This document shows positions 6,382-36,977 of a DNA stretch of 38,987 nt, one piece after another (the stretch's first letter is position 1; each line of letters starts with the position of its first letter). The position numbers were made by a program, and so were the translations under genes. The notes under the pieces are model-generated. The model was not told the DNA's origin. It saw nothing but the letters and a program-made list of their open reading frames with translations, and searched no databases. The DNA lies in assembly GCA_028694075.1 (NCBI GenBank), contig JAQUUD010000002.1, forward strand, positions 1-38,987, in the 5' to 3' direction. This DNA comes from Clostridia bacterium (GTDB taxonomy: Bacteria; Bacillota; Clostridia; Christensenellales; UBA1242).

Positions 6382-6577
6382 CAACTTATATAATAAAATA
6401 AAAAAGATTTACTCTAAAAATATGCAATTAAAAGAACTATTTTTTAAATTTGAAAATAACATTAATTAATTTGAAATTTGAAGTGCAAACTAAAAATTGA
6501 AGATTAATTAAGGCTAAAAATACAAATAATTTATATTGAATTGATTGCAAAATTAAAACAATATTGATTAAACTTAT

Positions 6578-6692
6578 TTAGTGACGATAGAGAGAAGGTC
6601 CCACCTGTTCCCATTTCGAACACAGAAGTTAAGCTTCTTTTCGCCGACAATACTTGACTGGTAACGGTCCGGGAAAATAGGGCATTGCTGAG
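6578..6692 (+). rRNA. rrf: 5S ribosomal RNA
   Basis: Contains CCCACCTGTTCCCATTTCGAACACAGAAGTTAAGC. The terminal helix TTAGTGA / TTGCTGA closes the molecule. Ends are accurate to a few nt. Confidence 0.9.
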
Positions 6693-6702
6693 TAAACAAA
6701 TT

Positions 6703-12675: not shown

Positions 12676-13044
12676 ATGGTCACGCAAGCTAAGTCGTTGG
12701 ATGAAATAATTTCAGATATAACAATTAGTATTGGAATTCCAGCAAATATTATTGGGTCTGCCTATATCAGTGAAGCAGTTAAACTGGTTATTGAAAAACC
12801 AAGTGTGTTATCCTGCATAACAAAAGAATTATATCCAACAATCGCAAATAAGTATGACACAAAAGTTGCTAATGTTGAACGCGGTATCAGACACGCGATC
12901 GAAGTTGCTTGGAGTAAAAATCGAATTATTGGTCTTAATAAAATTTTTAATTTGAACATCTACCAAGAAACTGAAAAGCCTTGTAACAGCGAATTTATTG
13001 CATTATTAGCCGAACGCATTCCTCATATAATGAAAAGAATGTAA
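12676..13044 (+). CDS. Stand-alone Spo0A C-terminal (DNA-binding effector) domain protein, no receiver domain
   Basis: IGIPANIIGSAYISEAV...ITKELYPTIANKYDTKVANVERGIRHAIEVAWSKN...EKPCNSEFIALLAERI parallels B. subtilis Spo0A-C (IGVPAHIKGYLYLREAI...VERAIRHAIEVAWSRGN...KPTNSEFIAMVADKL). It has a strong GAAGGAGG SD and an in-frame TGA 12 codons upstream. Confidence 0.85.
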   Translation: MVTQAKSLDEIISDITISIGIPANIIGSAYISEAVKLVIEKPSVLSCITKELYPTIANKYDTKVANVERGIRHAIEVAWSKNRIIGLNKIFNLNIYQETEKPCNSEFIALLAERIPHIMKRM

Positions 13045-19314: not shown

Positions 19315-19704
19315 ATGATTAGTTTAGAAAGAAGTTTGAAATTTATAAGAATTGTTTTATATTTTATAACAGCAATGTTTTTATTATTGCAATTTGCTTG
19401 GCACCCGTTTGTATATTTTGCAATGGCAAGTTTATTGTTCATATTCGTTAATCTGGCAGTGCTGGAAATTTTCAAATATAATGAAATAAAAAAAGAAATA
19501 AAGAACGAATACGAAGTTTTTCTTGTGAAGTGTTATAATGAAGGCAAAGTAACCAAAAACCAATTGGATTCTCAGGATAAAATATTTTATCCTGAATATG
19601 TTAAAAGTTTTAGAACTGATAAGATGAAAAAAATTTTGTTTTTCATACTTTGGTTCGGTCTGGCAGTTTCATTGCTTATAATAATTCTTAATGAAATATT
19701 TTAA
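19315..19704 (+). CDS. Small membrane protein (129 aa), unknown function
   Basis: Two N-terminal TM segments, a charged middle segment and one C-terminal TM. It lies 25 nt after the previous ORF. Confidence 0.5.
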   Translation: MISLERSLKFIRIVLYFITAMFLLLQFAWHPFVYFAMASLLFIFVNLAVLEIFKYNEIKKEIKNEYEVFLVKCYNEGKVTKNQLDSQDKIFYPEYVKSFRTDKMKKILFFILWFGLAVSLLIIILNEIF

Positions 19705-19793: not shown

Positions 19794-19902
19794 ATTTAAT
19801 TTTAAGTGGCAAGAAATGTTTAATACTTGAATATATTATTTTATAATTTAAAATTTACTGGTTCTTTAGCATAGGGTGCTAAAGAATAAATTGGGAGGAA
19901 AA

Positions 19903-21183
19903 ATGTATACAATAGAAAAAGGAAATAACAATTTATATAATATTGTTATTACAATTAATAAAAATGAATGGAACGATTATGTTGATATGGCTTATGAAAG
20001 AACAAAAGGTAAGTTCAATGTAAGCGGTTTCAGAAAAGGTAAAGTCCCGAGAAAAGTGATTGAACAGAATTATGGGACAAGCATTTTTTATGATGACGCA
20101 CTTGATGTTGCGTTCGGCGAACAATATGAAAAATTACTTGCAAAAGAAACTCAAATTGAGCCGGTTAGTTCGCCCGAAATCAAACTTGGCAAATTCGATG
20201 AAAGCGGGGTTGTTATTAATGTTAAAGTGCAAGGCACTCCTGAAATAAATTTAGGGACTTATAAGGGGCTTGAAATTGAAAGTGCCAAAGGCGAAGTCAC
20301 CGAAGAAAAGATTGATGCAGAAATTAATCAGCAAAGAGAAAAAATTTCAAGATTTGAAATTGTTCAAAGAAAAGCGAAAATGGGCGATTTTGTTACCATT
20401 GATTTCATTGGAAGCACGGATGGAGTTGAATTTGAAGGCGGACAGGCTGAAAATTATCGTTTGGAACTTGGCTCAAAAAGTTTTATAGATAATTTTGAAA
20501 ACCAGATTGTTGGAATGGAAGCAGAAGAAACTAAAATCGTTAAAGTTGCTTTTCCAGAAAATTATTTCTCAGCCGAGTTGAAAGGCAAAAATGCTGAATT
20601 TAAAGTTACGCTGAAAAAGGTTGAAGAAAAGCAGTTGCCTGAGTTGAATGATGAATTCGCTTCAAATGTAAGTGAATTTGACAAACTTGCTGATTATAAA
20701 AATGATATCAAAAAGCATTTGGAAGAAAGTTTAGAAGTTCAATTAAATAGAGAAACAGATAATAGGATAATCGATGCAGTTGTGGCTGAAACAGAAATAC
20801 AAGTGCCTGAAAGTATGGTTTCTTTGCAGATTGAAGATTTTGTTAAAGATTTTGAAACAAGGCTTTCTTATCAAAGTCTTACTTTGCAGGATTATTTAAA
20901 TCAAACAGGGCTTACTATTGAAAAATTAAGAGAAGAGCAAAGAGAGCACGCAATCAAGTCTGTTAAGACAAGATTACTTCTTGAAAAAATTATAAAAACT
21001 GAAAATTTAGAGGTGAAAGAAACTGAATTAGATGAGAAAATCAGTGAAATCGCTTCAAAATATAAAAAATCGCCGGAAGATTACAAAAAAAGCCTTAATG
21101 AAAGAGAGTTAATATACTTTGAAAATGGCATACTTATGGATAAACTTATTAAATTTTTAAGAAAAGAAAATAATATTATTTAA
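19903..21183 (+). CDS. tig: Trigger factor
   Basis: ATG at 19903 lies behind a GGGAGG SD. The GTG at 19876 sits inside a 5' UTR hairpin. Contains GFRKGKVPRKVIEQ (ribosome-binding signature GFRxGxxP) and a central FKBP-type segment (GDFVTIDFIGSTDGVEFEGG). Confidence 0.95.
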   Translation: MYTIEKGNNNLYNIVITINKNEWNDYVDMAYERTKGKFNVSGFRKGKVPRKVIEQNYGTSIFYDDALDVAFGEQYEKLLAKETQIEPVSSPEIKLGKFDESGVVINVKVQGTPEINLGTYKGLEIESAKGEVTEEKIDAEINQQREKISRFEIVQRKAKMGDFVTIDFIGSTDGVEFEGGQAENYRLELGSKSFIDNFENQIVGMEAEETKIVKVAFPENYFSAELKGKNAEFKVTLKKVEEKQLPELNDEFASNVSEFDKLADYKNDIKKHLEESLEVQLNRETDNRIIDAVVAETEIQVPESMVSLQIEDFVKDFETRLSYQSLTLQDYLNQTGLTIEKLREEQREHAIKSVKTRLLLEKIIKTENLEVKETELDEKISEIASKYKKSPEDYKKSLNERELIYFENGILMDKLIKFLRKENNII

Positions 21184-21375
21184 ATTATTGCAGTTGATTA
21201 AATTTATTATTTTAATTTCTAAAAATACATAAGTGATTTTAATATGTATAAAAAATTATAAGAAATTTTTAAAATGTTTAATTTTTTATAAAGATTAAAT
21301 TAGTGATTAATTTGAATTTTAAAAATAATTTAAATAGAGAAAGCATAATAAAAATATAATTATTTGGAGGTTTAA

Positions 21376-21987
21376 ATGCTTGTACCTTATGTTATTGACC
21401 AAACATCAACAGGAGAAAGGTCTTACGATATTTATTCCAGACTTTTGGAAGATAGAATTATCTTCTTAACCGGAGAAATTAATGATAGTGTTGCCAACAC
21501 AATAATTGCCCAACTTATTTATTTGGAAGGAAAAAATCCGGACAAGGATATTTATTTTTATATCAACAGCCCGGGAGGGGTTGTGTCAGACGGTCTTGCA
21601 ATTTATGACACAATGAACTATATTAAATGTGATGTTTCAACAATTTGTATTGGACTTGCTGCGTCTGCCGCGGCGCTTCTTTTGACAAGCGGAACAAAGG
21701 GCAAAAGATATGCTCTTCCGAACAGCCAAATTATGATACACCAACCGCACGCACAAGGAATTGGCGGGCAGGCAAGCGATATTGTTATTCGTGCAAAAGA
21801 AATTGAAAAAAACAAAGAAAAATTGAATCAAATTTTAAGCGAAAGAAGCGGTCAACCACTTAAAAAAGTTAAAGTTGACACGGATAGAGATTATTTTATG
21901 AGTGCAAATGAAGCGAAAGAATATGGACTCATAGATAAAATTTTTATTACAAGGGATAAAGAAATTAACGCTAAGAAAAAAGAATAA
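21376..21987 (+). CDS. clpP: ATP-dependent Clp protease proteolytic subunit
   Basis: Contains [29 protein letters not shown] (active-site Ser context) and IMIHQP. Confidence 0.97.
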
Positions 21988-22121
21988 ATAATTTTTTCTT
22001 GCAAAAGATATGTGTGATTAGATTAATTAAAAATAAATAATCCAAATATATTTAAATAATTAAAATACGAAAATAAAACAAATTAAATGATTTTCATATT
22101 ATATAATTAAAAAGGAAATTA

Positions 22122-23411
22122 ATGTTGAAAAGCGAGAACAATAACAATTTATCCTGCTCATTTTGTGGAAAACCGCAAGGTTTATCAAAAAGGCTTATTG
22201 CAAGCCCTGACGGCAGTTGCTATATTTGCGATGAGTGCGTGGAAATCTGCAAGGAAATAATAAAGGAAGATAAGATAACAGTGCTTGAGTCGATTTTAGA
22301 TTTGCCAACTCCAAGGCAAATTATGAACGAACTCAATGAGTATATTATTGGACAAGATGAGGCAAAACGTGTGCTTTCCGTTGCTGTTTATAATCATTAT
22401 AAAAGAATTAATTATAATCTTACAGCAAAAAAGGATAAAAACTCGATTGACGGAGAATTGGAACTTGAAAAAAGCAATATTTTAATGGTTGGTCCAACGG
22501 GCTCTGGAAAAACTTTGCTTGCAAAAACTCTAGCGAAAATTTTAAAAGTACCTTTTGCAACCGCTGATGCCACAACTTTAACAGAAGCGGGATATGTGGG
22601 CGATGATGTTGAAAATATTTTATTAAAACTAATTCAAAATGCTGAGTTTGACATTGCAAAAGCACAACGCGGAATTATCTATATTGATGAAATAGATAAA
22701 ATTGCACGAAAAACGCAAAATGTTTCAATTGCAAGAGATGTTTCCGGCGAAGGAGTTCAGCAGGCACTTTTGAAAATTATTGAAAGCACAATGGCAAGCG
22801 TTCCGCCACAAGGCGGAAGAAAACATCCGCATCAGGAAATGATTCAAATTGACACAACAAACATTTTATTTATTTGCGGTGGTGCATTTGTTGGGCTGGA
22901 TAAAATTGTTGAAAAAAGAATAAATGAAAGCAGTATTGGATTTAATGCGAAATTGAAATCAAACGACCAAGATGTAAATGAAACTGATTTAATAAAACAG
23001 TTACAGCCACAAGATTTAATTAAATTTGGTTTAATACCGGAGTTTGTGGGCAGACTTCCCGTTGTTGTCGGGCTTAATCCGCTCACCGAAAGTGCACTTA
23101 TTAAAATTTTAACAGAACCTAAAAACGCAATTATAAAGCAGTATAAAAAGATGTTCAAGATTGACAAAGTGGAACTTGTTTTTGAATCAGAAGCAATAAA
23201 CGCGGTTGCAAAAAATGCTTTAGAATTAAAAACGGGCGCTCGTGGACTTCGCACAATTCTTGAAGAATCAATGCTGGACTTAATGTTCAACACGCCAAGC
23301 GATTCAGACATTGAAAAAATTATAATAAGTAAGTCATATATAACAGAAAAATCTCAGCCAATTATAGAGCGTAAAGAAAAAATTGATGAGGCAAAAGAAA
23401 ATATTCTTTGA
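22122..23411 (+). CDS. clpX: ATP-dependent Clp protease ATP-binding subunit ClpX
   Basis: N-terminal zinc binding CSFCGK...CYICDECV, Walker A GPTGSGKT, Walker [10 protein letters not shown], and GARGLR. The gene ends with TGA. Confidence 0.97.
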
Positions 23412-23504
23412 AATTAAATTATTAAAGAAAAAACAATTTTATTAGATTGAAAAGTAACTTATTAAAAAAAATCATAATAATTAAATAAATAATAAATGAA
23501 AAAT

Positions 23505-23531
23505 AAAAATAACGAATTATTCGTTATTTTT
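23505..23531 (+). terminator. A/T-rich hairpin after clpX (probable terminator)
   Basis: AAAAATAACGAA / TTA / TTCGTTATTTTT, a perfect 12-bp stem running into a T-tract. Confidence 0.5.
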
Positions 23532-23793
23532 TTATTTATTTTATAATAAAATTATAATTTATTTCATTTTTTTTCAATTATTTAATATTTTTTATTAATT
23601 ATTTTAAGTTTTATATTATTTTAATTTACTTTCATATTAAGTTTGTAAAATTTATATTAATATAGAGTAAAAAAACTTTATATAAGATACTTAAAATAAT
23701 AGTAAAAATTTATTTGAAATGATAATAATGTTATTAAAAAATATTTAATTTTCTTGATTATATAAAAAAAATTTTGACCAAAAGGATTTTTAT

Positions 23794-23822
23794 TTGACTT
23801 AATTTGTAAAAAAATATATAAT
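23794..23822 (+). promoter_or_regulatory. Sigma-A type promoter of the giant ORF
   Basis: TTGACT (23794-23799), a 17-nt spacer, then TATAAT (23817-23822). The AGGAG SD at 23853-23857 lies 6 nt before the ATG. Confidence 0.6.
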
Positions 23823-23863
23823 TAATTAACTTATTTTGCAAATAATATAAGCAGGAGAAATTT

Positions 23864-26800
23864 ATGAGGTTTGTTAAGATTTTTTTGACTAGTTTTTTCT
23901 CACTTATTGGTGTGATTGGTATTATCATGGGCACTATGTGGTTATTTGGAACTTTTAACAAGCCCACTGTCAAACCAGAAGAAATCCATTTTGAATTAAA
24001 TGAATATTATGTGGATAATAATTTTATGATGGTAATTACATCTTCAACCGAAGATGTTGATGTAAATAGCATTACACTGTCGCTTAGTAATCAAGATGGC
24101 GAAGCAAATGATGAGGGATATATAACCGATGGAGTAATAATTATTCCAGAAAATGTAACGCTTGACACTCCATTTGCAGTTGAACTTGTTAAAAAGTATA
24201 ATGGTGAACTTTTAAAAGATTGGATAACGGGCGGAGTTTCAGAAATAACAGCAGAATCTGAGTCAATACTTACAATTGATACTTCCTGTAATGTTTTTGT
24301 TGACGTGCCGGTTGAAAGTGTTGGAATAAAAACTTATAAAAGCGATACCGCACAAGATGAAACGGATTCTTTTGCTTTAGGTGATAGTTTTTATGCTGAG
24401 GCAGTATTTCTTCCGGAATCAAGCAAATTTAAATTCAGCACAGATGAAACAAAAAAGATAATTTTTGACATAACGACAAATTTAGGCGCTTATATTGCAC
24501 AAAATGAAACAATGACGAATGAAAAGATAAGTGCAGGAACACCTTATATTCAAGGTTTTGATGTTTTAAAAACTTCTGACAACATTGTAATAAATGCATA
24601 TTGTTTTTATTCTGCAAAAATTGAAAATTATTATGTTGAGATGGGGAGTTCTGAAGATGATTTAATAAGGTATATGAATCAAACCTCAGCAGGAAGATCG
24701 TTTGCAGATAATTTGGTCTTCACAAAACGAACCGTAAATGGTTTTCAAATTTCTCAGTCAGATATAAAGAATTCTCTTAAATTTAATGACATTTCTTATA
24801 TTTATGCAAATAATCCTGCAGGCACATTGCCGAATTTGGGCATTAATATTTCTTCAAGTGACAACTCTTCAATTCAAAGTAAAATAAGTGATGTTGGAAT
24901 AAGGGCATTGATTAAAGATAATGGTATTTATCGTGAAGCCACAGAAAATGAAATTTTATTTACTGAGAGCAACAGAGTTGATTATGCTGAGAACTCAGCC
25001 GGCGAAGGTTTATATTTCAAAAACACAGAGCAACAATATGTTCTTCTAACCACAGAAATTGCTGTGCGATATAGTTTCAACGGAACAATATATGCTCAAA
25101 GCAACAAAGGTGCATATTATAAAGTTGGTGACAATTATGTTCTGATTACGGAAACTTATGGCACAACATATGATAAATATTATTTGCCAACACTTGTGCC
25201 AGTAAACGTAGATAATAGTTATTGGACTGTTATTGCTGTAAGTGAAAGCATAGAATATGTATTTGAAGTTAAGTTGTTCGAAAAAAATGATGTTATTCAG
25301 GAACTTGTAGAAACAACTTTACGCACTGTTGAAGAAGCATGGGTGGCTGATAGTGTTGTGCAAACCAATTTATCATGGATAAATGGCGAAGATGTTCAGT
25401 TGATTTTTGTTGATTCAGCAAACAATGGTGATAAGGATTATCAAGAATATAATTTGTCAGACAATATAGAAATTAAAAATTCTGATTCTACATATACGGC
25501 AGTTAGGTATTTGGCTTTTACAACCGACGACACTGGAGTTGACAGCATTATTCAAAATGTTCAACCAGCATCTAATTATGATTTAACAGGTTATAACATA
25601 CCTTATGCTTTGTATGAAATTAATGGGGATATTTTAAAATCATTTGGCGCGGGGACAGTTTGTGTTATTGCAGTTATTATTAAAACTGATTATTTGGGCA
25701 GACCAATGCTTGATGAAAATGACAAATATATTATTTTTGCAATTACAAAACCAAGTTCTGCAATTAAATCATATCAAGAATTGGTTGTAAATATTAATAA
25801 AACAATTCAAAACTTGAACGCGGAAATAACAATTAATGATGAGGCATATTTAAAAAACCAACCTGAAGAGGGCTTAACTGATATTAATAAGCTTGCATTT
25901 GTTCAGAATGAAAATGGTATCGTTTTCACAGTTGATATTACAATTACCGCAGATGAACATACGAACATACAAGATGAAATAAACTTGTTCGTAAATGCTT
26001 GGAATCAGGAAAGGATTTATTTGCAAGCTTATACTTTAAGTGGCATTTTGGTAAGTAATATATTATATTTTGAGCAAAATATTGATCAAAGTATGATAAT
26101 ATCATCATCAGACGGTGTGCTTGTGGGCTCAGCGTGGACTTTGCCGATTAATGTATACACGCTTGAATGTGACACTGACACTGAATTATATATCAAATTG
26201 ATATATGAAAAAACAAATGAAAAAATTTCAAGCACTTTCTTAACTGAAGTGAATTTGCCGTCTGAATTAAGCGATATTAATATTGTGGGCAATTCAACTT
26301 ATATCAAAGTTGAAGTGTATGACGGAAAGGCTTACGAAGCCGGATTTGCGGTTATAACCAGTAGTGATAATGCCATAGAAAAAAGTGTTGATATTATTCA
26401 AGGCGATTTGATTGAAGCAAACAAATATTATGCTTCTGAAATAAATTCAGCATATATGCTTGGTGGGGAAGATATAACTAATACAATTTTAGATGAAAAT
26501 GGTGCTTTTATTATAAAATTTTATGATAAATACGGGAATGAAATTCAAATTCCGGCAACCGATTATTCTGTGGCATCAAGCGGAACGAACAAGATTTTAA
26601 CTGTAACAAACTACTCGTCATCATTGCTTCCTGCTCAATTACCTTTAACGTCAACTCTTTATATTAATGAAACCGATACGGGTGAAATTCGTAATGTTGA
26701 ATTTAATGATGGAAATGTGCGAGAAGGTGCATTTGAATCAAAATATGTGGATATAACTTCAGAATATTTAGTTAATAACAATTATATTGCAAAAATAACC

Positions 26801-29800
26801 CGTTATGGTGCGGGTGGTTCTGTTATTCAAATTCTTGGAGCGGGCGGGCTTTTGAAATTTGAATACTTAGCAAACGACGGCACAATATATCAACTTCAAA
26901 ATGTTATAAAATATAACTTCACAACGCTTAATTGGGAGACCTCTTACAGCGGTTATTTAAGTTTAAGCGGGGATAATACCAGTATTTCAGTTTTAAAAAC
27001 AACTGGAACTGATATTATTTTAAACATTATTGCAGACACCGGTCTTGGCACAGTAATTTATATTGAACTTACAATTAAACCTAACATTTCTTCAACATAT
27101 AGGGTGCTAACCGACCAAACGGGAGCAAGTGATTTTGTATATCAAAATACTTATTATGGAATTTTTTCAGATAATGATGTTGCTGTTGAAATTACTCTGA
27201 ATATGATGCTTTATGAAACCTTTATATTGAGTTATTTAAGTGATGTAACAACCAACTTTTTATTTGATAACAACTCGACTTCATATACAATAAACAACAT
27301 ACTTGAAATTAAAATTACTTTGACGGTTCATTATAATTATAGCGAACTCGGAATGAAGACAATTATATTAAGAACAGACACAGGTCCGTACGATTATTCA
27401 AGAAATATTAATTTAAATATAAATCCAAATTTGGAACTCGTTGACTCTGAGGAAAATCTTTTAGAGAAAGACCTTGAATTTTCAGTGCCTGACACGGTTG
27501 TTCCGGTTTTGACAAGTGAAGATTATCAAAGAATTGTCAGCAATGAGATTATAAATATTGCAGGCATTACAATGAACATTGCAACTGTTTCCGATGGACC
27601 AGTTGAACATAGTCAAGTCTTCTTGATAAATAACAGCGGAAACTTGGAAACGATTGAAAATATTTTCACTGTGCAAGGCTTTGGAATAAGTTTAAATTCA
27701 GGCGCAACACTTGCCGGAACTTATCTTGTGATTTTAAATGTTGAATATGGAAATGTGGTTGTTGGTCAGATTAATCTTTATATTTCAACCGATATGAAAG
27801 CAAACTCATCAAGCCAGAATTATGAAAATTATTTTGCTGATTATAATGGAAAAACTCACTTGGTGCTTGTTTCTTTAAATCAATATGATTTGGTTTTTAT
27901 TTCTTTCCTTTTTGAGAATGTTAACACCGTTTACTTCAGCCCAACAGCAATGCAAAATGTTTATCAAATTTCAGATTTGAAATTAATTGTTGATAATTTA
28001 TATTCTTATACAAGCGGATACTATTTGCATTTATCAAATTCAGTTGGAACAATAACATATCCGGTTTTATTCTCGCCTTTAAACATAGGATTTTTAAAGT
28101 ATGACGAAGGCTCTGCGACAAATCCTGAGGCAACGGCTTCCGCTAACTCGGATATTGGTTATTTGTTAGACAGTGATTATTTAATAGAAAATCAAATTGC
28201 TGACGTTTATAACAGCGGAACAGAATCCTCTTTATTAAATGTGAATTTCTCACTGGATTTAAATGAAGATGATTATTCATTTAAAAACTTTGGCATTGAC
28301 AGTGTTTATTTGCTTGCTCATATCATTGGCGAGGGCGCAGGATATTATTATTATAGAGTTGATGGAATAGGAGTGCTTAACACAACTTATGATTTCTCGC
28401 TTGACTCGCTTTCATCAACTTGGACTTTGATTGAAAATGATAATATAATTTCAGCGGTATTTAGGTCGCCTAATCAGGAATTTATCGGTGTGTTTAGTGA
28501 AAACTCAGCCTTTTCGGAAGAAAATCAAATTAATCAAAACAAATCAAACGGGATTTCACTTGATATGTATAATAATTCAAGTACTTATTCGTATAGAATT
28601 ATTGATGAAAATGCAAATGGCACAGTGGATTTCAGTTCTTTAACCACATCAAATTATGCAAGTTATACACATAATAAAGCAATTCTAAAAACAGAATCTT
28701 TAACTGAAAATCATTTTGTTTGGCTTTTAGCATTAAAAAGTGACCAGATAGTTATGGCATATCGAATTTACATAATTGCTAATTCAGGACTTAATATATA
28801 TTATCCACACGGAAACGGCATTGGAACTTCTGCCGGTGATGGCATTGCAACTGATGAGGCAGAGTATATTTACTTTAAAACAACGGACGGTAATAATGTT
28901 ATTGATTTCAATCAAAATATTGCATCATATTTGCCAAACAGCATTGCCGGAACTGATATAAAAAGAGTTATGTTCCAGTACGGAAATGAAAATATTGGCT
29001 GGACAAATGCAACAAATTATACATTGTTCTATTCAATACACAAAATTTCAGTTAATGGTGTTGAAATAAAATCAACAGATTCGGGAGCAGGCACACTTTT
29101 TGCAACTTATTTGACTTTAAATGCACAAAATCAATTAACTTTTAAAAATACACCTGACACTTTGGTTATTTATATAAAAGTTACTGCTCAAATAGATGGG
29201 CAAGCATTGAATGCAACCGTTTATTATAAAGTGTTTGTAAATTATTCAGCAATTAATTATGCTTTATATTATTTAGACGAAAACGATAATTTAACCGGCA
29301 ATAAATTTACTCAAACATCAGCCCAAATTGATTATGGCGATACATATGATTTTTCTAATGTGGCACTTGTAAATGAGATTGACTCAACGTTAATTATAAT
29401 GAATGGAAATAATTATTATTTTTATTCAGCAGAGGGTAAAGATTTAACTGATTATGTGAATTTGGACATTGACAGCAAAACAATTTCAATAAATAATAAT
29501 ATTGAACTTGTAAGCGATTTGAAAGTGCACCTGATTATGTACACAATGTTTGGCACACTGATTGATATTGAACTAACTTTTAAATCCAGCATTGATTTTG
29601 TTTACAATTCGGCTCAAACCACAGTTGTATATAATTCAGAAACAAGTCAATATGAAGTATATTCAGACACAGAGTTTGATTTGACAAGTATTTTTAATGT
29701 AGAAACGCAAGGAACCGGCATTCCGGCTGATGTTTCTTATTGGCAATATTCGCTTGATAATGGGCTGACATATCTTAGCGGAAATGATATAATTTTTGAC

Positions 29801-32800
29801 CAAGCACAAGAAGGCGAATATCAAGTTATAATAAAAGTGCTTTTATCAGATTATGATAGCATTACATATAAAGATGATTATATAACAACAATTATATTGA
29901 AAATAAAACCAAGCATAATTTCAAATTATTCAGAATTAAATTTGCCTATGCAGTTAGCAGGCGGAATAATTGAATATCCGACCATTGGGGCAGGGCAACA
30001 AGAATTTTCAGATTTAATTTATGTTGAAAGTTCAGTGCTAATTGAAAACATTCTATTCAGCATTCAAAACTTAAATATTTTGGAAAGATATTCGCTTGGT
30101 GTGCAAGTTAAAGATGGAAATGAATATGTCAGCATTTTCTCTTTGGATTTGGCAAACAATAATTTTGTGCTAAGTTTTAGTTCTCCTGCTGACATAGTTA
30201 ATATTCGTCTGGCATTCACTTTAACACACGGCGATTATTCAATCACTTCATATTTAGCATTTCAATTAAAGCCTGATGTGTATTTACAAATCAATTATCC
30301 TAGCCCTGATGATGTTACAACTTATGATTCCGAAGCAGCATATTTAAGCGGAGAATATATCAACAATAGCAATTTGAATGACGCTTATAGTTATAGTAGT
30401 GATAACTTTACAGTGAGATTTAATCAGACAATGTCAGCATATTTTAAAACAACCAGAATTGTATTTAAAAACAACAGTGATGAGTCTGTAGATTATGCTG
30501 CATTATTAGATAGAGTTGTCATAACTGTTTCAGACATTTCAAACAACTTGGTTGCATCTTGCAGTAAAGATTCAATAGTTTTTTTAAACACGAACATTGA
30601 TTTAAGCGCTGGGGCATTGCTTAGCAGTAGTATTAACTTCCAGTGGGTTGGGACAACGCCAATTGCAACAAGCACAACTGGTTCAGTTACATTCTCTATT
30701 TATATTGATGGAGTGCATCGTGGTTTTTATACTATAATTTTCCATTCTGATATGCGTAATATATTTAGCATTGACATTAATCCACATAATCAGGTCATAA
30801 ATTATGGCGAAGGCGTTAATGCCGAAGTGTTCTTTGTTGAAAATGAAAATACCGGCGGTCTTTTCTCGACTAATGATGCCTTGTTAAGTTTCACTTTAAG
30901 GCAATCTTATGCAACTTCATTAGCAGGAAATACGGCAACTTGGGCGTTTTATCAAGGTTTCGTAAATGAAAACACTTTGCTTGAAACCATTACACTTAAT
31001 AGCACATCTTCTTTAATCCAAGTTGCATTAAGCGGACAAACTGAAATAACTCTTGAGAATATAATTATATTAATTAACGGCAATGAATATGTATTTAATT
31101 CATCTGCTCAAAACAGTATTTTTATAAGTTATGTGAACATTAGTGCTGGTTATAATTTAACATATCGTGCAACTGCATATTATTTAGGCACGCAAATTTC
31201 ATATAGCAAGTATGCCGAAACAATTACTTTTGACGATTTAATTGCAAGTGAATTCGTTATTAGCAAGAGTAATGTAGATGCAATCAACTCAGCAAGATTG
31301 GTTAATGTTGCAGTTGGCGGAGTTAGTTTTGCAAGTTATTATTACACACTTATATATGATTTCAAAATAAATCAAAATTCTGATTCTGAGCATTTCACTT
31401 TGGAAGTTTCTGCAGGCACTGAAATTGCAAGTTTAACAGACACATTTTCAGTAACTCGTTATAACGGAAGCAAGTTCACGGGGGATTATTTTTCAATAAA
31501 TCAAAATACTCTTGATGCCGAAGTGATTATGATAACAGATAGTGAATATGAAACAACAGGAAGTTCGGACAATATTAAATATCTAAATTCAACATATATT
31601 GAACATTATAAGCCTGAATATCTTTCAATTTCTTCGCTTCCTGAATTTTCTAATTATATTGATTATTTAAACATAAGTCCTTTGCAACAAAGCAATAAAA
31701 CTTATAACTTTGCAATAATGGCAAATGGCGCTGAAAATAATGGCAATTATGTTTATATAATAATCACTTTCAAAGCAAATGAAATAACAACGCATTTGGC
31801 ATATGCTGTTATTAAAATTTTTATTCAGCCAGTTTGGACTGCAGAATTTTATAATGAAGACCAAAATGCAAATGATGAAGAAAATCAATTTATAATTTAT
31901 TATGACGGACTAAGTTCAAACCAAATAACACCAATTATTCTTTCCGCTACAACTTCTGAAGAAAATCATATCAATATTTATCGTGGCAGTGATTTCAATT
32001 CGAATTTTGCAATGACCGGTTACTTTAAATATTTGATTCAAGGCGAATTAATTAGTTATTTAAAATTCGACGAACAATATAAAACAGGTGATTATTATTT
32101 CAATACGCTTAAAATTATGAATTCAACCAACACTGCAATATATGGCGATAAATCAGGTTATATAGAAATTTCTGATGCGTATGGCTTTGTGATGTATTAT
32201 TATATAACTTTAAGAGCACAATCCAATGAATCACTAAGTTACGCAAATCAAATCATAAATGCAACAGGATCTGATTTGTTTGAAGGTTCAACGATAAGCA
32301 TTGTTGATGTTGGATATAATCAAGATATTGATAATCCAATCAGCACAAACTATGCTCTTAAAATCAACCATTTGCAAGAATTGATTGATGAAGGCTATGC
32401 TTATGAAATAACTTATTTAATTGATGGCGTTACTGTGGAAAGTTATAACTCCGACCCAGATGCGACCAATTATAATACGGGAAAAATAACGGTTCAAAGT
32501 GCTTCGTTCTATACCACAACAACAGGCAGACAACCAGTGAATTTGCAAATTCAATTAGACATATCAAAAGGTGCTTATAGCGAAACCGTAATCATAAATG
32601 CAGGTATAAACATTGTAAAAAGATATACAGTTAACGGTTCGGGCAATTCTTATGTAAGAGATAATGTGCCGTTTAATATTTCAGATTATATTTATGTGCA
32701 TGATGCAAATATAAGTGAAGACATTGGTGAAATTTCATTATCAGAAAAACAATTTACTCTTGTTGTGCCTAGTGCTTATGTAGGCGCTGTGATTAGAGTT

Positions 32801-35800
32801 TCGGCTAGTCTTGACGAAACAAGAATAAACAGCAATATAACAGTGGGCAAAGATACACTAGGCAATGAAAAAGTTGCGTCATATGATAATTATTATTATC
32901 CTTTAAAAGAAATTAGTGTATTTAAAGATTTAAATTTCGATTTATATAAATTTGCTGTGATTGCAGTGACACTTCCAAATGAACAAGGCATTTATTTCTC
33001 TAACAAAGCCGATAATTCTTTCAATGCTTCTGGTGAGCAAGTGACAGAACTCAGTTCTTCGGAATATTTCTTCTATAATTCATTTAGTGAAAGCATGGCG
33101 CTTGTGTATACAACCGGACTTAATTATTATTATAAAACATTTGTTTACGGCAGAAATGAAACAATATCAACCTCAGCAATTGCTTCATCTTGGACAACTA
33201 CAACAGCATTTAGCGGAGCAAGTGAACCGGGCTTTGTGGGCATTTATTCGGCGGATTTATCTGTGCAATATACAGGTGAGATTTATGATTATACCGATTA
33301 TAATATGATAGCAGATAAACTTTTGAGCGTAGTAACATTAGATTTGCAATCTGATGTAGTCGAAACTGTAACTGTTGTTTTGAATAATCAAGAGTATCAA
33401 GCAAATATTCCATTTGAACTTAACTTTGATGGAATGCAAAATGTTTCAGTTTATGAAGCAATTTTGAATTGGAAAAACGGCGTAACCTCAGCCCCAGAAC
33501 TTGATAATATAACAAATTACGAGAAAGACAGTGAAGTTATGTCAGTTGAAGATTTGCAGAAATTAAAAGGCATTGTTTTATATAATGATACAATTTCCCT
33601 TGAAATTGTTAGCGGAATGGCTAGCAAAATAATGAATGTGCGAGTTTATTATAATGACACACAATATAAATCAAAAATTTATACAATCTCTAATAACAAC
33701 CCGCATTATTACTATATTTCAATTAACAGTATATTGGGGGACGAGATAGGACTTAATGTAGATGTTGATTATAAAGTTGAAATAACTTATACTTTAACAA
33801 ACATTGAAAGTGGGCAAGAAAATGATTTCGCAAACAACATTACTCTTGTAGATAATTTTGACAATGATGTCACCTATGTTTATAACTCAGATAATTCTTA
33901 CTGCACTTATACAATAACAGTCGGTTCGTTTGAAATTTCAGCATTTACTCCTAATCTGGTTAGCGGTTTGTATGAAGATTGCATTGATGTTATGCACGCC
34001 AGCGATTTTGTTAACAAAGTAAAAGCAAATATTAAAAAATATTATTTGGTTCAATATGCAAAAGATAATGTGATTTATTCAGTTACAGTGAATTATAATG
34101 TAACACCGCAATATTATGCAGTTGATACTTCCGGAAATACATCAGGAAATAATTATAAAGTTATTTATGTTGGTCAATATTTCCACGATGAAACAGATGA
34201 TTCATATGCTATTGAATATGACAAATGGACAGCAGGATTTAATCTTTTGGATTATAGCAATAATAAAATTAAATCTGTAAATTCTGCCGACGAAGATTTG
34301 TATTTTGAAATCCAGACAACAGACACCACAGACGGGCAAGGTACATCAACAGGTGCGGCATATTTAGATGAAACAAATAAAATAATAACAACAGAGGGCT
34401 TTAATGCCGAGCAACATTATATAAAAGTTTCAGTTTATACATATGTTGATAAAATTGCAAATCAAAAAGTGTTAATTGGTAACATTTATATAAAAATTGA
34501 CAGCACATCTTTGTTTGTATCAGTTCCGGGAAATTATAATGTAACAATTAATTCTCCGGAAATAGGAGGCTCAATATATAAAATCAACACTCCCTATACT
34601 TTTACAGCTAACACCGCAAAAATAGTCGATATTTTAAGTAATGAAAATATGGAAACAGTTGTAAATGATGATGGTGAAATCGGGTTTTTTACAGGAAATT
34701 CATATTATTATAAAGAACCAACAGATTGCGACTTTTCAGTTGTTTCCGTTATTTCAAGCATAGATGAATCTGTGTTTGAAGACGGTCGGCTAAGTATTAA
34801 AATAAACTTAAACGAAACCCAGAATTCAATTAATCAAAAAATTGAAATGCAAGCAACTGCTTTGCCAAAATCTCCATTGCTTGAATCCAAAACATCTAAC
34901 TCTTTTTTTCTATTAGTAAGTTATATTGGCGGGGTTTATTATTTAAATTATCAAATTGAAGAAGAAGGTGTAATACTTGATTCTTTCACAGTAGGATTTG
35001 ACGGTTATTATAATGTAACGATAAGAATTGAAGATATTTTTAATGAAATTTTCGTAGGCAGTGATTATACTTATAAAATTAATGTTATTGAAATAACAAG
35101 TGGAACGCAAACAGATTCATTATCCGTAATATATGCGGATAATTCTCTTATTTCTGAAACAAATATCGATGATACCGTTTTTTTTCTGCTTTCATACTAT
35201 GATGAAGCCACTCATCTAACTGAATGTAAGTTTGTGGGTCTAAAATATACCGAAGAAAATCAGAGACTTGCCGGCCCACTTGGTTATGCTATTGACTTGG
35301 AAAAATTGGGTGCTGAATCCTTGCTTTTAAAAAATTGCACAATTTCATTTTTAGGCAGTTTTGATTTGGATTGTCAAGATGAGGAAGAAAACATTAATTT
35401 ATTATTGTCTTATGGCTCTCTTGCTGTTGATATGACTTATAGCATCGCATTTATTGATAAATACAGTGATACAAATCCGTTTTGGGTTGATGACTATGCA
35501 AAATCTATGCTTAGTTTTGCAAGTGCTTCACAAAGTTTTGTTACAAGTTATCAATTTGAAGTTTCAGAAGAATTCCCAGAATCCCTAACTTATTTATTGC
35601 TTGAATCGTATGCAGGAAATGATAATTATTATTATGGCGTTTATGTTGGAAATAGCATTGATTTATATGGCATAAGCCCGGTTGTAAGTGGCGATGGGAA
35701 AGTAATAATTTTGAATGTACAAAATTATACAGTAGACAACGACAAAGTACGCATAAAAAATTATAATTCATATATCTCCACAAATGTTTCAGAATTGTTC

Positions 35801-36730
35801 GCGGGTGATGAAACTGTGGCAACATTTTGGCAATCACTACTTAATTCAAGTTCAATACTTTATACAGCAACTAATATCACAAAACAAACAAATTCGGTTG
35901 TGTATGACTCTCAAAATTTGAATTTAACGCAATATAAATTTGATTATGCTCCGGGTTTTTGGCAAGGTGGAGCAAGCAATGCTCAATTAATTGAAAATAA
36001 CATAAACTTAACGGCAGTAGTTTCAAGCATAATTAATGAAGATTCATATTATTTTAGTTTAAATAATCAGGCTGTAGAAATCGCATTTGCAGTTATCCAA
36101 GGCATTGAGTTGAATAATGTTAATATTTCGGCAATTTTAAATTATTACATAGGCGAATTTAATGGCACTGTCAAAATCAAACATTTAAACATTTCTGGAT
36201 TAATTGACGAAGAAGGTTTGCAAAAATTTGCAGTTTTTAATGTAAACAATTTGCTTGTATCAATAAAAACGGCAGTATTTGAAAATTTGGACGGAACAAA
36301 TTATTATTTAACAACAAATAATATATTAACCATATATTCAAGTGCGATAATGACCGGTGATGTTTTCAATTATAATGTGCCGTCGGCACTGCAAATGACA
36401 TATTATAAACTTACCGATGAAATCGGAAATATAGCATATTATGCCGTTGATGCCAACCAAACAACAACCATTCAAATCAACTGCGAAAATTTGGAGCAAG
36501 GCGAAATAATTACATTTAACAAATATGATATTTCAATTAATATTACCTCCTTAGATTTCCCACTGAATTTAATTGTTCCTTCGTCGATTTATTCACAGTC
36601 TTATATTCTAAGCAGTCAAAGTGAAAACTATTTGATTTATGTTCCGGCGAACACAACCACTTATGAAATTAATTTGAATGATTACTTTGGTTTAGCCCCG
36701 ATTGAGTTAACTATAACTCCTGAGAATTAA
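23864..36730 (+). CDS. Giant (4,288 aa) N-terminally membrane-anchored or secreted protein of unknown family; probable surface fibre or adhesin
   Basis: A 12,867-nt stop-free frame in very AT-rich DNA, with its own promoter, SD and a downstream terminator. The N-terminus MRFVK + FLTSFFSLIGVIGIIMGTMWLFGTF is a signal or anchor with no lipobox Cys. The remainder is acidic, rich in N/Y/S/T/I and poor in Cys. Confidence 0.9.
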   Translation: MRFVKIFLTSFFSLIGVIGIIMGTMWLFGTFNKPTVKPEEIHFELNEYYVDNNFMMVITSSTEDVDVNSITLSLSNQDGEANDEGYITDGVIIIPENVTLDTPFAVELVKKYNGELLKDWITGGVSEITAESESILTIDTSCNVFVDVPVESVGIKTYKSDTAQDETDSFALGDSFYAEAVFLPESSKFKFSTDETKKIIFDITTNLGAYIAQNETMTNEKISAGTPYIQGFDVLKTSDNIVINAYCFYSAKIENYYVEMGSSEDDLIRYMNQTSAGRSFADNLVFTKRTVNGFQISQSDIKNSLKFNDISYIYANNPAGTLPNLGINISSSDNSSIQSKISDVGIRALIKDNGIYREATENEILFTESNRVDYAENSAGEGLYFKNTEQQYVLLTTEIAVRYSFNGTIYAQSNKGAYYKVGDNYVLITETYGTTYDKYYLPTLVPVNVDNSYWTVIAVSESIEYVFEVKLFEKNDVIQELVETTLRTVEEAWVADSVVQTNLSWINGEDVQLIFVDSANNGDKDYQEYNLSDNIEIKNSDSTYTAVRYLAFTTDDTGVDSIIQNVQPASNYDLTGYNIPYALYEINGDILKSFGAGTVCVIAVIIKTDYLGRPMLDENDKYIIFAITKPSSAIKSYQELVVNINKTIQNLNAEITINDEAYLKNQPEEGLTDINKLAFVQNENGIVFTVDITITADEHTNIQDEINLFVNAWNQERIYLQAYTLSGILVSNILYFEQNIDQSMIISSSDGVLVGSAWTLPINVYTLECDTDTELYIKLIYEKTNEKISSTFLTEVNLPSELSDINIVGNSTYIKVEVYDGKAYEAGFAVITSSDNAIEKSVDIIQGDLIEANKYYASEINSAYMLGGEDITNTILDENGAFIIKFYDKYGNEIQIPATDYSVASSGTNKILTVTNYSSSLLPAQLPLTSTLYINETDTGEIRNVEFNDGNVREGAFESKYVDITSEYLVNNNYIAKITRYGAGGSVIQILGAGGLLKFEYLANDGTIYQLQNVIKYNFTTLNWETSYSGYLSLSGDNTSISVLKTTGTDIILNIIADTGLGTVIYIELTIKPNISSTYRVLTDQTGASDFVYQNTYYGIFSDNDVAVEITLNMMLYETFILSYLSDVTTNFLFDNNSTSYTINNILEIKITLTVHYNYSELGMKTIILRTDTGPYDYSRNINLNINPNLELVDSEENLLEKDLEFSVPDTVVPVLTSEDYQRIVSNEIINIAGITMNIATVSDGPVEHSQVFLINNSGNLETIENIFTVQGFGISLNSGATLAGTYLVILNVEYGNVVVGQINLYISTDMKANSSSQNYENYFADYNGKTHLVLVSLNQYDLVFISFLFENVNTVYFSPTAMQNVYQISDLKLIVDNLYSYTSGYYLHLSNSVGTITYPVLFSPLNIGFLKYDEGSATNPEATASANSDIGYLLDSDYLIENQIADVYNSGTESSLLNVNFSLDLNEDDYSFKNFGIDSVYLLAHIIGEGAGYYYYRVDGIGVLNTTYDFSLDSLSSTWTLIENDNIISAVFRSPNQEFIGVFSENSAFSEENQINQNKSNGISLDMYNNSSTYSYRIIDENANGTVDFSSLTTSNYASYTHNKAILKTESLTENHFVWLLALKSDQIVMAYRIYIIANSGLNIYYPHGNGIGTSAGDGIATDEAEYIYFKTTDGNNVIDFNQNIASYLPNSIAGTDIKRVMFQYGNENIGWTNATNYTLFYSIHKISVNGVEIKSTDSGAGTLFATYLTLNAQNQLTFKNTPDTLVIYIKVTAQIDGQALNATVYYKVFVNYSAINYALYYLDENDNLTGNKFTQTSAQIDYGDTYDFSNVALVNEIDSTLIIMNGNNYYFYSAEGKDLTDYVNLDIDSKTISINNNIELVSDLKVHLIMYTMFGTLIDIELTFKSSIDFVYNSAQTTVVYNSETSQYEVYSDTEFDLTSIFNVETQGTGIPADVSYWQYSLDNGLTYLSGNDIIFDQAQEGEYQVIIKVLLSDYDSITYKDDYITTIILKIKPSIISNYSELNLPMQLAGGIIEYPTIGAGQQEFSDLIYVESSVLIENILFSIQNLNILERYSLGVQVKDGNEYVSIFSLDLANNNFVLSFSSPADIVNIRLAFTLTHGDYSITSYLAFQLKPDVYLQINYPSPDDVTTYDSEAAYLSGEYINNSNLNDAYSYSSDNFTVRFNQTMSAYFKTTRIVFKNNSDESVDYAALLDRVVITVSDISNNLVASCSKDSIVFLNTNIDLSAGALLSSSINFQWVGTTPIATSTTGSVTFSIYIDGVHRGFYTIIFHSDMRNIFSIDINPHNQVINYGEGVNAEVFFVENENTGGLFSTNDALLSFTLRQSYATSLAGNTATWAFYQGFVNENTLLETITLNSTSSLIQVALSGQTEITLENIIILINGNEYVFNSSAQNSIFISYVNISAGYNLTYRATAYYLGTQISYSKYAETITFDDLIASEFVISKSNVDAINSARLVNVAVGGVSFASYYYTLIYDFKINQNSDSEHFTLEVSAGTEIASLTDTFSVTRYNGSKFTGDYFSINQNTLDAEVIMITDSEYETTGSSDNIKYLNSTYIEHYKPEYLSISSLPEFSNYIDYLNISPLQQSNKTYNFAIMANGAENNGNYVYIIITFKANEITTHLAYAVIKIFIQPVWTAEFYNEDQNANDEENQFIIYYDGLSSNQITPIILSATTSEENHINIYRGSDFNSNFAMTGYFKYLIQGELISYLKFDEQYKTGDYYFNTLKIMNSTNTAIYGDKSGYIEISDAYGFVMYYYITLRAQSNESLSYANQIINATGSDLFEGSTISIVDVGYNQDIDNPISTNYALKINHLQELIDEGYAYEITYLIDGVTVESYNSDPDATNYNTGKITVQSASFYTTTTGRQPVNLQIQLDISKGAYSETVIINAGINIVKRYTVNGSGNSYVRDNVPFNISDYIYVHDANISEDIGEISLSEKQFTLVVPSAYVGAVIRVSASLDETRINSNITVGKDTLGNEKVASYDNYYYPLKEISVFKDLNFDLYKFAVIAVTLPNEQGIYFSNKADNSFNASGEQVTELSSSEYFFYNSFSESMALVYTTGLNYYYKTFVYGRNETISTSAIASSWTTTTAFSGASEPGFVGIYSADLSVQYTGEIYDYTDYNMIADKLLSVVTLDLQSDVVETVTVVLNNQEYQANIPFELNFDGMQNVSVYEAILNWKNGVTSAPELDNITNYEKDSEVMSVEDLQKLKGIVLYNDTISLEIVSGMASKIMNVRVYYNDTQYKSKIYTISNNNPHYYYISINSILGDEIGLNVDVDYKVEITYTLTNIESGQENDFANNITLVDNFDNDVTYVYNSDNSYCTYTITVGSFEISAFTPNLVSGLYEDCIDVMHASDFVNKVKANIKKYYLVQYAKDNVIYSVTVNYNVTPQYYAVDTSGNTSGNNYKVIYVGQYFHDETDDSYAIEYDKWTAGFNLLDYSNNKIKSVNSADEDLYFEIQTTDTTDGQGTSTGAAYLDETNKIITTEGFNAEQHYIKVSVYTYVDKIANQKVLIGNIYIKIDSTSLFVSVPGNYNVTINSPEIGGSIYKINTPYTFTANTAKIVDILSNENMETVVNDDGEIGFFTGNSYYYKEPTDCDFSVVSVISSIDESVFEDGRLSIKINLNETQNSINQKIEMQATALPKSPLLESKTSNSFFLLVSYIGGVYYLNYQIEEEGVILDSFTVGFDGYYNVTIRIEDIFNEIFVGSDYTYKINVIEITSGTQTDSLSVIYADNSLISETNIDDTVFFLLSYYDEATHLTECKFVGLKYTEENQRLAGPLGYAIDLEKLGAESLLLKNCTISFLGSFDLDCQDEEENINLLLSYGSLAVDMTYSIAFIDKYSDTNPFWVDDYAKSMLSFASASQSFVTSYQFEVSEEFPESLTYLLLESYAGNDNYYYGVYVGNSIDLYGISPVVSGDGKVIILNVQNYTVDNDKVRIKNYNSYISTNVSELFAGDETVATFWQSLLNSSSILYTATNITKQTNSVVYDSQNLNLTQYKFDYAPGFWQGGASNAQLIENNINLTAVVSSIINEDSYYFSLNNQAVEIAFAVIQGIELNNVNISAILNYYIGEFNGTVKIKHLNISGLIDEEGLQKFAVFNVNNLLVSIKTAVFENLDGTNYYLTTNNILTIYSSAIMTGDVFNYNVPSALQMTYYKLTDEIGNIAYYAVDANQTTTIQINCENLEQGEIITFNKYDISINITSLDFPLNLIVPSSIYSQSYILSSQSENYLIYVPANTTTYEINLNDYFGLAPIELTITPEN

Positions 36731-36807
36731 TAAATTTAATAATTGATGGTTTAATAATTGACTAATTTAGAAAAATACAAAATTAATAATTGATGTAATA
36801 AAAATAC

Positions 36808-36836
36808 AAAAAATCCGATAATTTATCGGATTTTTT
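36808..36836. terminator. Bidirectional rho-independent terminator between the convergent giant ORF and the ATPase
   Basis: AAAAAATCCGATAA / TTATCGGATTTTTT, with an A-tract on one side and a T-tract on the other. Confidence 0.8.
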
Positions 36837-36977
36837 GTTTAACGCTTGTTTTACACTCAGTTAACACTCAGTTTATTAATAACTTAATATTTTGCTGTTT
36901 TTAAATAAGTTTTCCTTTTGAAATATGTATATATAAACAAGTATAAATCTTAATAATTGATTGCTTGCATAAAAATT

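Follow-up and report, generated by a model that had tools for sequence, protein, structure and literature searches.

We analyzed a 38,987-nt stretch of DNA from a Clostridia bacterium assembly (GCA_028694075.1, contig JAQUUD010000002.1, positions 1 to 38,987; hereafter the window), in which one gene encoding a protein of 4,288 amino acids (aa) takes up 33% of the sequence, matching the one-third share given in a preliminary description made from the sequence alone. Comparisons with its relatives indicate that this giant gene is real, single and under selection, and not an assembly artefact. Its product is predicted to be a long chain of immunoglobulin (Ig)-like beta-sandwich domains preceded by one N-terminal transmembrane (TM) helix. 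We propose, with about even confidence, that this product is an extracellular fibre or adhesin, made of a single chain tethered to the membrane, and that it belongs to an undescribed family. The features discussed below are located in Table 1.

An intact giant gene and its family

The frame starts with an ATG, and the protein ends in ...GLAPIELTITPEN* (also given as ...IELTITPEN). A single stop-free frame of 12,867 nt had been reported, and we indeed found one intact open reading frame (ORF) of 4,288 codons. The two other forward frames contain 343 and 557 stops across the same stretch, the window has a GC content of about 30%, and the chance of 4,288 stop-free codons, calculated from base composition, is about 1e-159. 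Since two of the 14 window ORFs end in TGA, genetic code 11 is used in the window. As the GC content and codon usage of the giant gene match those of the neighbouring genes, we consider the gene native.

Orthologues were sought with an N-terminal alignment as query, each GTDB species being represented by a single genome; hereafter, loci of relatives are numbered L001 to L013 and family-member proteins carry P0xxx labels. Three orthologous loci, all in metagenome-assembled genomes (MAGs) labelled Clostridia bacterium, carry an intact ORF directly after clpX: BRZ_R bin122 (4,357 aa), the sheep-colon MAG RGIG5369 (L004, 4,272 aa) and STF2_140 (4,019 aa), the two other MAGs holding loci L003 and L005. 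These proteins are 45%, 52% and 29% identical to the window protein, respectively, end to end and with few gaps, whereas the ClpX proteins of the same three genomes are 77-82% identical. The giant protein therefore evolves fast but keeps its frame and length.

An exhaustive HMMER search with an N-terminal profile against 1.84 billion representative proteins recovered 182 clusters (at 50% identity) at E<=1e-3, of which 113 were below 1e-30 (best E-value 3e-253). Most have 3,200-4,700 aa and can be aligned from the first residue on; some 40 representatives of full length are intact and collinear. The shortest members (3,150-3,400 aa) contain little beyond the collinear core described below. In a word-index homology search, the N-terminal tile gave two matches only, and aa 1201-2700 and 2701-4288 gave none at E<=1e-3. 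A scan of metagenome contigs returned only one 70-aa fragment. A phage origin was rejected, as no relative was present in a viral-contig scan. All relatives named in public sources are annotated as 'hypothetical protein' and come from Clostridia or Clostridiales MAGs; the family, which comes from uncultured gut and anaerobic-digester Clostridia, is known so far solely from metagenome assemblies, and a full-text literature search found no description of it.

Three metagenome contigs carry the homologue as two ORFs, with the break at about position 10730 in L001 (~aa 1075), 2846 in L002 (~aa 835) and 9984 in L012 (~aa 3135). Such splits are what speaks for a chimeric or misassembled frame in the window, or for two genes wrongly joined. 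However, the breaks lie at different positions, homology continues past each of them in another frame, the three MAGs and about 40 representative proteins are intact and collinear end to end, and an accidental open frame of this length has the vanishing chance given above. We therefore assign a negligible probability to an artefact, and the single contiguous protein of the preliminary description stands. The splits are best read as sporadic frameshifts, pseudogenisation or assembly errors with no shared programmed site. Two related ideas were discarded on the same observations: a fusion of two genes in the window genome, suggested by the split L001 and L002 loci, because homology crosses the breaks and intact orthologues are the rule, and a recurrent or programmed break near aa 1,100, because the break points differ. 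Two short members, P0156 (1,127 aa) and P0162 (1,113 aa), are C-terminal pieces and give no support to a break near aa 1,100. As a separate observation, the JGI call of the L002 homologue (P0002) reads through a TGA as Trp at L002 2844-2867 (…IVWEKCILF), on a contig of 25.5% GC.

Searches of the whole window protein against Pfam, NCBIfam and PHROGs returned nothing above cut-off, the sole library match being sub-threshold (Glucodextran_B, 16 bits), and a sequence search of the PDB with the single protein or a 4-sequence profile gave 0 matches even at E<=10. A motif scan of the giant protein found no LPXTG (LP.TG), zero RTX GGxGxD (GG.G.D) motifs and no YSIRK, collagen or CxEQ (C.EQ) thioester motif, and the protein lacks a C-terminal hydrophobic segment. 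SLH and CWB2 domains had no match in Pfam or NCBIfam for the window protein and 12 family members, the window protein had no Pfam match to FIVAR/GA, alpha2-macroglobulin (A2M) or BspA-type LRR_5 domains, and no enzymatic signature was detected with Pfam, NCBIfam or the motif scan. These results bear out the lack of LPXTG, SLH, RTX, collagen and enzymatic signatures first noted by eye. They also uphold the proposal of an undescribed family, since no curated sequence family matches and the relatives are hypothetical proteins. The accompanying statement that the protein has no recognisable family holds for sequence (Pfam, NCBIfam, PHROGs and PDB searches were empty) but not for fold, which is recognisable as an Ig-like array.

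Among 12 diverse family members scanned with Pfam, 11 had no match. The exception, P0068 (4,711 aa; from outside the window), carries BspA-type leucine-rich repeats (LRR_5, 5e-91), LRR_8 and Big_3 added in its C-terminal half, showing that modules for surface interaction can be accommodated distally in this family.

The protein has a mass of 480 kDa and an isoelectric point (pI) of 4.1, is rich in I, S, N, T and Y, and contains 12 Cys and 3.7% Lys, in agreement with the acidic, N/Y/S/T/I-rich composition, roughly a dozen Cys and few Lys described earlier. The low pI and the 12 Cys in 4,288 aa point to an extracellular character.

Table 1. Positions of the features of the giant gene, its product and its neighbours (window coordinates unless a locus is given; pLDDT, predicted local distance difference test; pTM, predicted template modelling score)
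Feature	Position	Strand	Basis or remarks
Giant ORF, 4,288 aa	23864..36730 (including stop codon)	+	ORF call; collinear orthologues
N-terminal signal anchor (predicted), MRFVK + ~23-residue hydrophobic helix, aa 1-29	23864..23950	+	Hydropathy, AlphaFold2, conservation
Most conserved family module, aa 30-200, predicted all-beta	23951..24463	+	Invariant columns, AlphaFold2
Family-wide collinear core, aa 1 to ~3550	23864..34513	+	Present in nearly all full-length members
Lineage-specific C-terminal region, aa ~3600-4288	34661..36727	+	Occupancy 0.35-0.55, identity 0.08-0.13
Tile 1, aa 1-1150: TM helix and ~ten beta-sandwich modules (predicted)	23864..27313	+	pLDDT 84.1, pTM 0.53
Tile 2, aa 1850-3000: further beta-sandwich modules (predicted)	29411..32863	+	pLDDT 82.6, pTM 0.52
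Sigma-70-type promoter, TTGACT-17-TATAAT	23794..23822	+	Promoter scan; 11/12 consensus positions
Shine-Dalgarno AGGAG, 6 nt 5' of ATG	23853..23857	+	Sequence
Intergenic leader, clpX to giant gene, 452 nt, 10.2% GC	23412..23863	+	Sequence
Terminator hairpin, 15 pairs, A-run/T-run flanks	36806..36838	.	dG -16.9 kcal/mol, z = -5.45
tig-clpP-clpX upstream block	19876..23411	+	Synteny
Cardiolipin-synthase-like genes	L007 15113-16546; L009/L010 17516-18973; L006 18827-19519; L011 13743-15149; L013 7624-9057		

Predicted fold, topology and conservation

We modelled two tiles, together 54% of the chain (aa 1-1150 and 1850-3000), using AlphaFold2 with family alignments. Apart from a low-confidence insertion at aa 395-434, everything after the N-terminal helix in tile 1 is predicted to be almost entirely beta-strand, and tile 2 contains a helix-richer stretch at about aa 2445-2600. 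In the model of tile 2, 'hxhxhxP' motifs at aa 2010, 2131, 2301 and 2650 (e.g. IELTIKPNI, ILKIKPSI, AFQLKPDV) sit at junctions where the last strand of one module passes into the first strand of the next. Scaled up from about ten modules in 1,150 residues, the full chain would comprise perhaps ~40 Ig-like domains if the 46% of the chain outside the models is alike.

Comparison of the models with the PDB using Foldseek gave 142 (tile 1) and 348 (tile 2) matches at E<=1e-3, the top ones all being multi-Ig-domain proteins. Tile 1 matched Nup210, hydin-like chains, A2M/C3, SbsB, PrgB (its Ig-like domains), GhpA and cadherins, and tile 2 matched hydin, protocadherins, titin I65-70, GhpA, Sap/SbsC and A2M; DSCAM and contactins were further matches. 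The best E-values were obtained for Nup210 (7r5k_10, 2.5e-18) and a hydin-like central-apparatus chain (9ijj_4H, 1.2e-14). Since TM-scores were about 0.1 and sequence identities 6-12%, these matches give a fold class, an Ig-like chain, and not a homologous family. Modelling of tiles followed by Foldseek had been proposed as a check, and the resulting chains of Ig-like beta-sandwiches agree with a fibre, adhesin or coat at the cell surface.

The Foldseek matches also included alpha2-macroglobulins, both bacterial and eukaryotic, and complement C3/C4/C5, which speaks for an A2M-like protease trap or another non-structural role of a macroglobulin (MG)/Ig array. Bacterial alpha2-macroglobulins are characterised by a CxEQ thioester, a bait region, A2M/TED domains and a lipobox; in the giant protein the thioester motif, A2M Pfam domains and an N-terminal lipobox were all absent from our scans, the chain is about three times the length of A2M, and the matches, with their TM-scores of about 0.1, reflect generic MG/Ig-like domains. 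An alpha2-macroglobulin identity was rejected on the missing thioester motif and lipobox, and the broader class of such roles appears very improbable.

The preliminary description placed the sole hydrophobic anchor at the N-terminus, without a lipobox. Accordingly, a single 19-mer is strongly hydrophobic (Kyte-Doolittle hydropathy 2.25, against 1.75 for the runner-up); it begins at aa 3, within a segment at aa 3-27, and AlphaFold2 predicts a continuous helix at aa 2-27, with the positive charges R2 and K5 preceding the hydrophobic stretch. The motif scan found no N-terminal lipobox, the only lipobox-like match being internal (aa 2230), and no AXA cleavage site follows the helix. Conservation was analyzed in an alignment of 45 full-length members (the window protein, its L003, L005 and L004 orthologues and 41 representatives). 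Residues F7, G19 and G23 are conserved in 82-89% of these members and G29, just after the helix, in 91%, with G19xxxG23 forming a family-conserved GxxxG-like motif. Such conservation would be unusual for a disposable signal peptide. Because of this, of the helix length and of the missing AXA site, we favour retention of the helix as a signal anchor.

In a different reading, the first 29 aa would be a cleavable Sec signal peptide, and the released protein would stick non-covalently to the wall via its conserved first domains or build an extracellular or biofilm matrix. The n-h-c layout (MRFVK, ~21 hydrophobic residues and LFG) agrees with this and is, at 29 aa, within the range of Gram-positive signal peptides; the small, conserved G29 with L at -3 makes a permissible signal-peptidase I site, and no other anchor motif is present in the giant protein. 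However, the hydrophobic stretch is long and forms one continuous predicted helix, the AXA site is missing, and conservation of F7, G19 and G23 is atypical for signal peptides. A secreted, non-anchored matrix protein is thus quite unlikely in our estimate.

The chain is free of detectable repeats at every level analyzed. Self-BLASTP of the giant protein gave a best E-value of 0.027, profile-profile alignment (hhalign) of 52 overlapping tiles from four orthologues reached a best probability of 41%, and neither Tandem Repeats Finder nor a direct-repeat DNA search detected anything inside the ORF. The core stays collinear residue by residue even where identity drops to about 19%, with column occupancy mostly 0.7-0.98 and lower values (0.38-0.61) around aa 1401-1600 and 3001-3200. 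Conservation follows a gradient that has its maximum at the anchor end and its minimum at the C-terminal end. The first 200 residues show 37-43% mean identity to the family compared to about 20% elsewhere, and the N-terminal module contains residues invariant in 45/45 members: G123-G124 (WIxGG), D147 and P149 (VDVPV), P184 and S187. Others equally invariant are scattered through the core (W505, Y1788, Y2145, Y2289, G2622 and W3455). The C-terminal ~700 aa are the fastest-evolving part, and among close orthologues identity is lowest at aa 3901-4200. The window protein thus carries the features of the family: M(R/K)F-x-K followed by a TM helix, the invariant residues listed above and a collinear core of ~3,200-3,500 aa.

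The proposed fibre, known systems and competing readings

Giant bacterial proteins fall mainly into non-ribosomal peptide synthetases/polyketide synthases and groups of surface proteins (PMC11573180). By its predicted fold and topology, the giant protein would belong with the surface proteins. In our favoured reading, the positively charged MRFVK end and the hydrophobic helix would direct Sec-dependent export and N-in/C-out insertion, and the helix would afterwards be retained in the membrane, serving as a type-II signal anchor. The remaining ~4,260 residues would lie outside the cell as a probably extended chain of Ig-like domains, each unlike the others in sequence yet with a counterpart at the same position in orthologues. 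The cell wall would be crossed, and possibly engaged, by the strongly conserved modules next to the membrane; the conserved core would serve as a long spacer with a defined architecture, and the fast-evolving ~700-residue region would be displayed at the far end. There it would most likely bind a partner surface, for example glycans from the host or the diet, or other microbes; a binding end at the C-terminus is consistent with the conservation gradient and with the LRR and Big_3 modules added in the C-terminal half of P0068. Transcription would be autonomous, from a near-consensus sigma-A-type promoter of its own to its own terminator. A cell-surface fibre, adhesin or coat had been suggested in the preliminary description, and the predicted helix with its positive end and the modelled Ig-like strings support that suggestion.

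Comparison with known systems sets the protein apart from each of them. It would share with the Periscope and other Gram-positive single-chain stalk adhesins (SasG/Aap, Rib, SHIRT, SpaA-repeat) a functional end projected tens of nanometres or more from the surface (PMC9704523). The defining traits of Periscope proteins are tandem repeats of high identity, an LPXTG sortase anchor at the C-terminus and an adhesin domain at the N-terminus (PMC9704523). In sortase-anchored proteins of the MSCRAMM/Periscope class, a hydrophobic segment and a positive tail come after the sorting signal. The giant protein has no repeats at the DNA, protein or profile level, no LPXTG and the reverse polarity, with the helix N-terminal and the variable end C-terminal. 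The giant, repetitive BIg/RTX adhesins of Gram-negatives (SiiE, LapA, MpIBP and Bap-like proteins) are extracellular chains of several thousand residues whose Ig-like domains belong to the fold class of the Foldseek matches. However, these adhesins rely on type I secretion, with C-terminal signals, RTX GGxGxD motifs and near-identical Pfam Big domains, none of which is found in the giant protein, and the host here is a Firmicute, as indicated by Spo0A_C and SepF in the window. The giant staphylococcal proteins Ebh and Embp carry YSIRK, FIVAR/GA helical repeats and a C-terminal TM anchor, while the giant protein is predicted to be beta-rich with an N-terminal TM helix. The LRR_5 repeats that define BspA-like surface proteins are missing from the window protein and are an add-on in P0068 only. 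GhpA, the grappling hook of Aureispira, is another giant protein of a bacterial surface, and the structure solved for its base shows an Ig-like array (9fly_A; Foldseek E-values 1.8e-10 and 1.6e-12), but it forms an oligomeric hook in a Bacteroidota predator with another export system, and the match is one of generic fold only, with no sequence relationship. Overall, as far as its sequence can tell, the giant protein lacks features that define each of the named families compared here and represents a new, unnamed family. Among Ig-array surface proteins it stands out for a predicted TM tether at the N-terminus, a reversed polarity and a complete lack of repeats.

Two further comparisons bear on an alternative in which the protein would be an ordered coat or envelope scaffold and not an adhesin, i.e. 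a fixed-architecture part of an S-layer-like lattice or a TM-tethered scaffold in the style of Nup210 and hydin, in which every unique Ig-like domain would have its own fixed place and contacts. The S-layer proteins SbsB, SbsC and Sap are Firmicute surface proteins that also consist of strings of dissimilar Ig-like domains (Foldseek entries 4aq1_C, 5ftx and 9g93_A, with E-values of 9e-11, 1.2e-9 and 8.5e-11 and TM-scores of 0.10-0.14). They are, however, 5-8 times smaller and anchored to wall polymers through N-terminal SLH domains, where the giant protein has a TM helix instead. Nup210 and hydin share very long chains of sequence-dissimilar Ig-like domains in conserved order, and Nup210 also a single TM anchor, but they are eukaryotic nuclear-pore and ciliary scaffolds with no sequence similarity (7-9% identity in the alignments). 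Their resemblance is an analogy of architecture and no evidence of homology or shared function.

Several observations agree with such a scaffold: the sequence is strictly non-repetitive, some 3,500 residues line up one to one with relatives even at about 19% identity, the best Foldseek matches are the Ig-array scaffolds Nup210 and hydin-like chains, with SbsB, SbsC and Sap also matched, and pTM is about 0.5 in both tiles. A near-consensus promoter conserved across relatives fits high expression, the conserved GxxxG-like helix motif could mediate oligomerisation, and a cardiolipin-synthase-like gene adjoins the giant gene in three distant lineages. In contrast, SLH, CWB2 and other S-layer anchoring domains are missing, the TM-scores of about 0.1 match no specific scaffold architecture, and the C-terminal 700 aa vary freely and look like a displayed tip, with BspA LRRs added in one member. 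An abundant coat of 480-kDa subunits would also be costly, known S-layer subunits being several times smaller, and the codon adaptation index of the giant gene (0.66, compared to 0.59-0.72 for its neighbours, and uninformative as an expression proxy) is not raised. We regard the scaffold as the chief competitor of the tethered fibre, a real but rather unlikely possibility.

A more specific version, which we consider unlikely, is a lineage-defining envelope machine: a single chain of 0.35-0.5 MDa with perhaps ~40 non-interchangeable Ig-like domains, oligomerising through the GxxxG-like motif in a cardiolipin-rich membrane and forming a ring, lattice or exoskeleton around cells of a clade of low-GC, uncultured gut Clostridia, and not acting as an adhesin. 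Such a machine would be a bacterial analogue of scaffolds of the Nup210/hydin type. Oligomerisation in such a membrane would fit the recurrent adjacency to the cardiolipin-synthase-like gene.

Several points weigh against the tethered fibre or adhesin. Typical adhesin stalks are repetitive and length-variable (PMC9704523), and the repeat-free chain and family-wide collinearity fit a scaffold of fixed architecture better than a generic spacer. The pTM of about 0.5 for tiles of 1,150 residues suggests a partly fixed packing between domains and not a floppy string. A non-Ig functional domain could hide in aa 1150-1850 or in the C-terminal 1,290 aa, which lie outside the models, and signal-peptidase cleavage after the conserved G29 (L27-x-G29) is conceivable. 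Finally, none of the loci examined has an adjoining sortase, dedicated secretion system or glycosyltransferase/glycosylation gene.

Genomic context and significance

A promoter of its own, an AGGAG Shine-Dalgarno sequence, about 450 bp of A/T-rich leader and a strong bidirectional terminator had all been described for the giant gene, and all are present (Table 1). The same promoter arrangement was found upstream of the giant genes of relatives at L003, L005, L007, L004 and L001, and the terminator hairpin is common to the giant gene and the converging P-type ATPase gene downstream. Within the 10%-GC leader, about 90 nt past the clpX stop, we observed an A/T-flanked hairpin (AAAAATAACGAATTATTCGTTATTTTT) at 23490-23520. 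This hairpin probably terminates clpX transcription, separating the giant gene from the upstream operon; a stem poor in G-C pairs explains why the terminator scan did not include it.

The genes upstream of the giant gene are groEL, sepF, lspA, rluD, a small unknown ORF, tig, clpP and clpX, so that the position after tig-clpP-clpX noted earlier was recovered. The full tig-clpP-clpX block is syntenic at L003 and L005, while L004 shows clpP and clpX only, at a contig end, and L012 clpX only, plus the same convergent P-type ATPase. Distant family members have other neighbours and no tig-clpP-clpX next to the giant gene. Adjacency to clpX is therefore a lineage-specific synteny and no functional clue, and a functional link to clpX or a replacement of lon was rejected on the same grounds. 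A gene resembling phospholipase D-type cardiolipin synthases (PLDc_N and two PLDc_2 domains, ~470-485 aa) adjoins the giant gene in three distant lineages, represented by P0028, P0077/P0100 and P0017, but not in the clade of the window. This adjacency may reflect ancestral synteny or a functional link to membrane domains. Since the genomes of distant relatives encode a PASTA-domain penicillin-binding protein and the window encodes SepF and Spo0A_C, these bacteria are taken to be walled Firmicutes.

Other observations concern the remainder of the window. The small ORF between rluD and tig (129 aa, 19315-19704) has no Pfam family and is 50-54% identical to ORFs at the same position in L003 and L005. 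A 122-aa ORF (12676-13044) corresponds to the Spo0A C-terminal DNA-binding domain only (1.6e-35), with no receiver domain in the ORF; it is preceded by ~415 non-coding nt and a 229-aa ORF without a family (11572-12261), and may be a truncated or split spo0A. Two rRNA genes lie in the window, a complete 23S gene at 3413-6347 and a 5S gene at 6577-6693. The 3.4 kb upstream of the 23S gene are protein-coding (a sigma-70 fragment, a zinc-ribbon protein and small ORFs), with no 16S gene there and no tRNA gene anywhere in the window, which suggests an unlinked rRNA operon.

Giant surface proteins shape the attachment and competition of gut bacteria and their recognition by hosts and phages. Giant hypothetical surface proteins are not rare in MAGs; to our knowledge, the giant surface proteins that have been characterised are almost all repetitive and come from cultured pathogens. 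The present analysis defines a large unnamed family of at least 182 clusters (50% identity), with members of 3.2-4.7 thousand residues each and no Pfam model, in which uncultured Clostridia spend much of their coding capacity on a single chain without repeats, predicted to be Ig-like and of polarity opposite to that of sortase-anchored stalks. The family is a clean target for a new Pfam/NCBIfam model, for metaproteomics and for cryo-electron tomography. It also allows one to ask what makes a bacterium maintain dozens of unique domains in a fixed order when it could amplify one repeat. If the ordered scaffold proved true, the protein would represent a new type of bacterial envelope structure.

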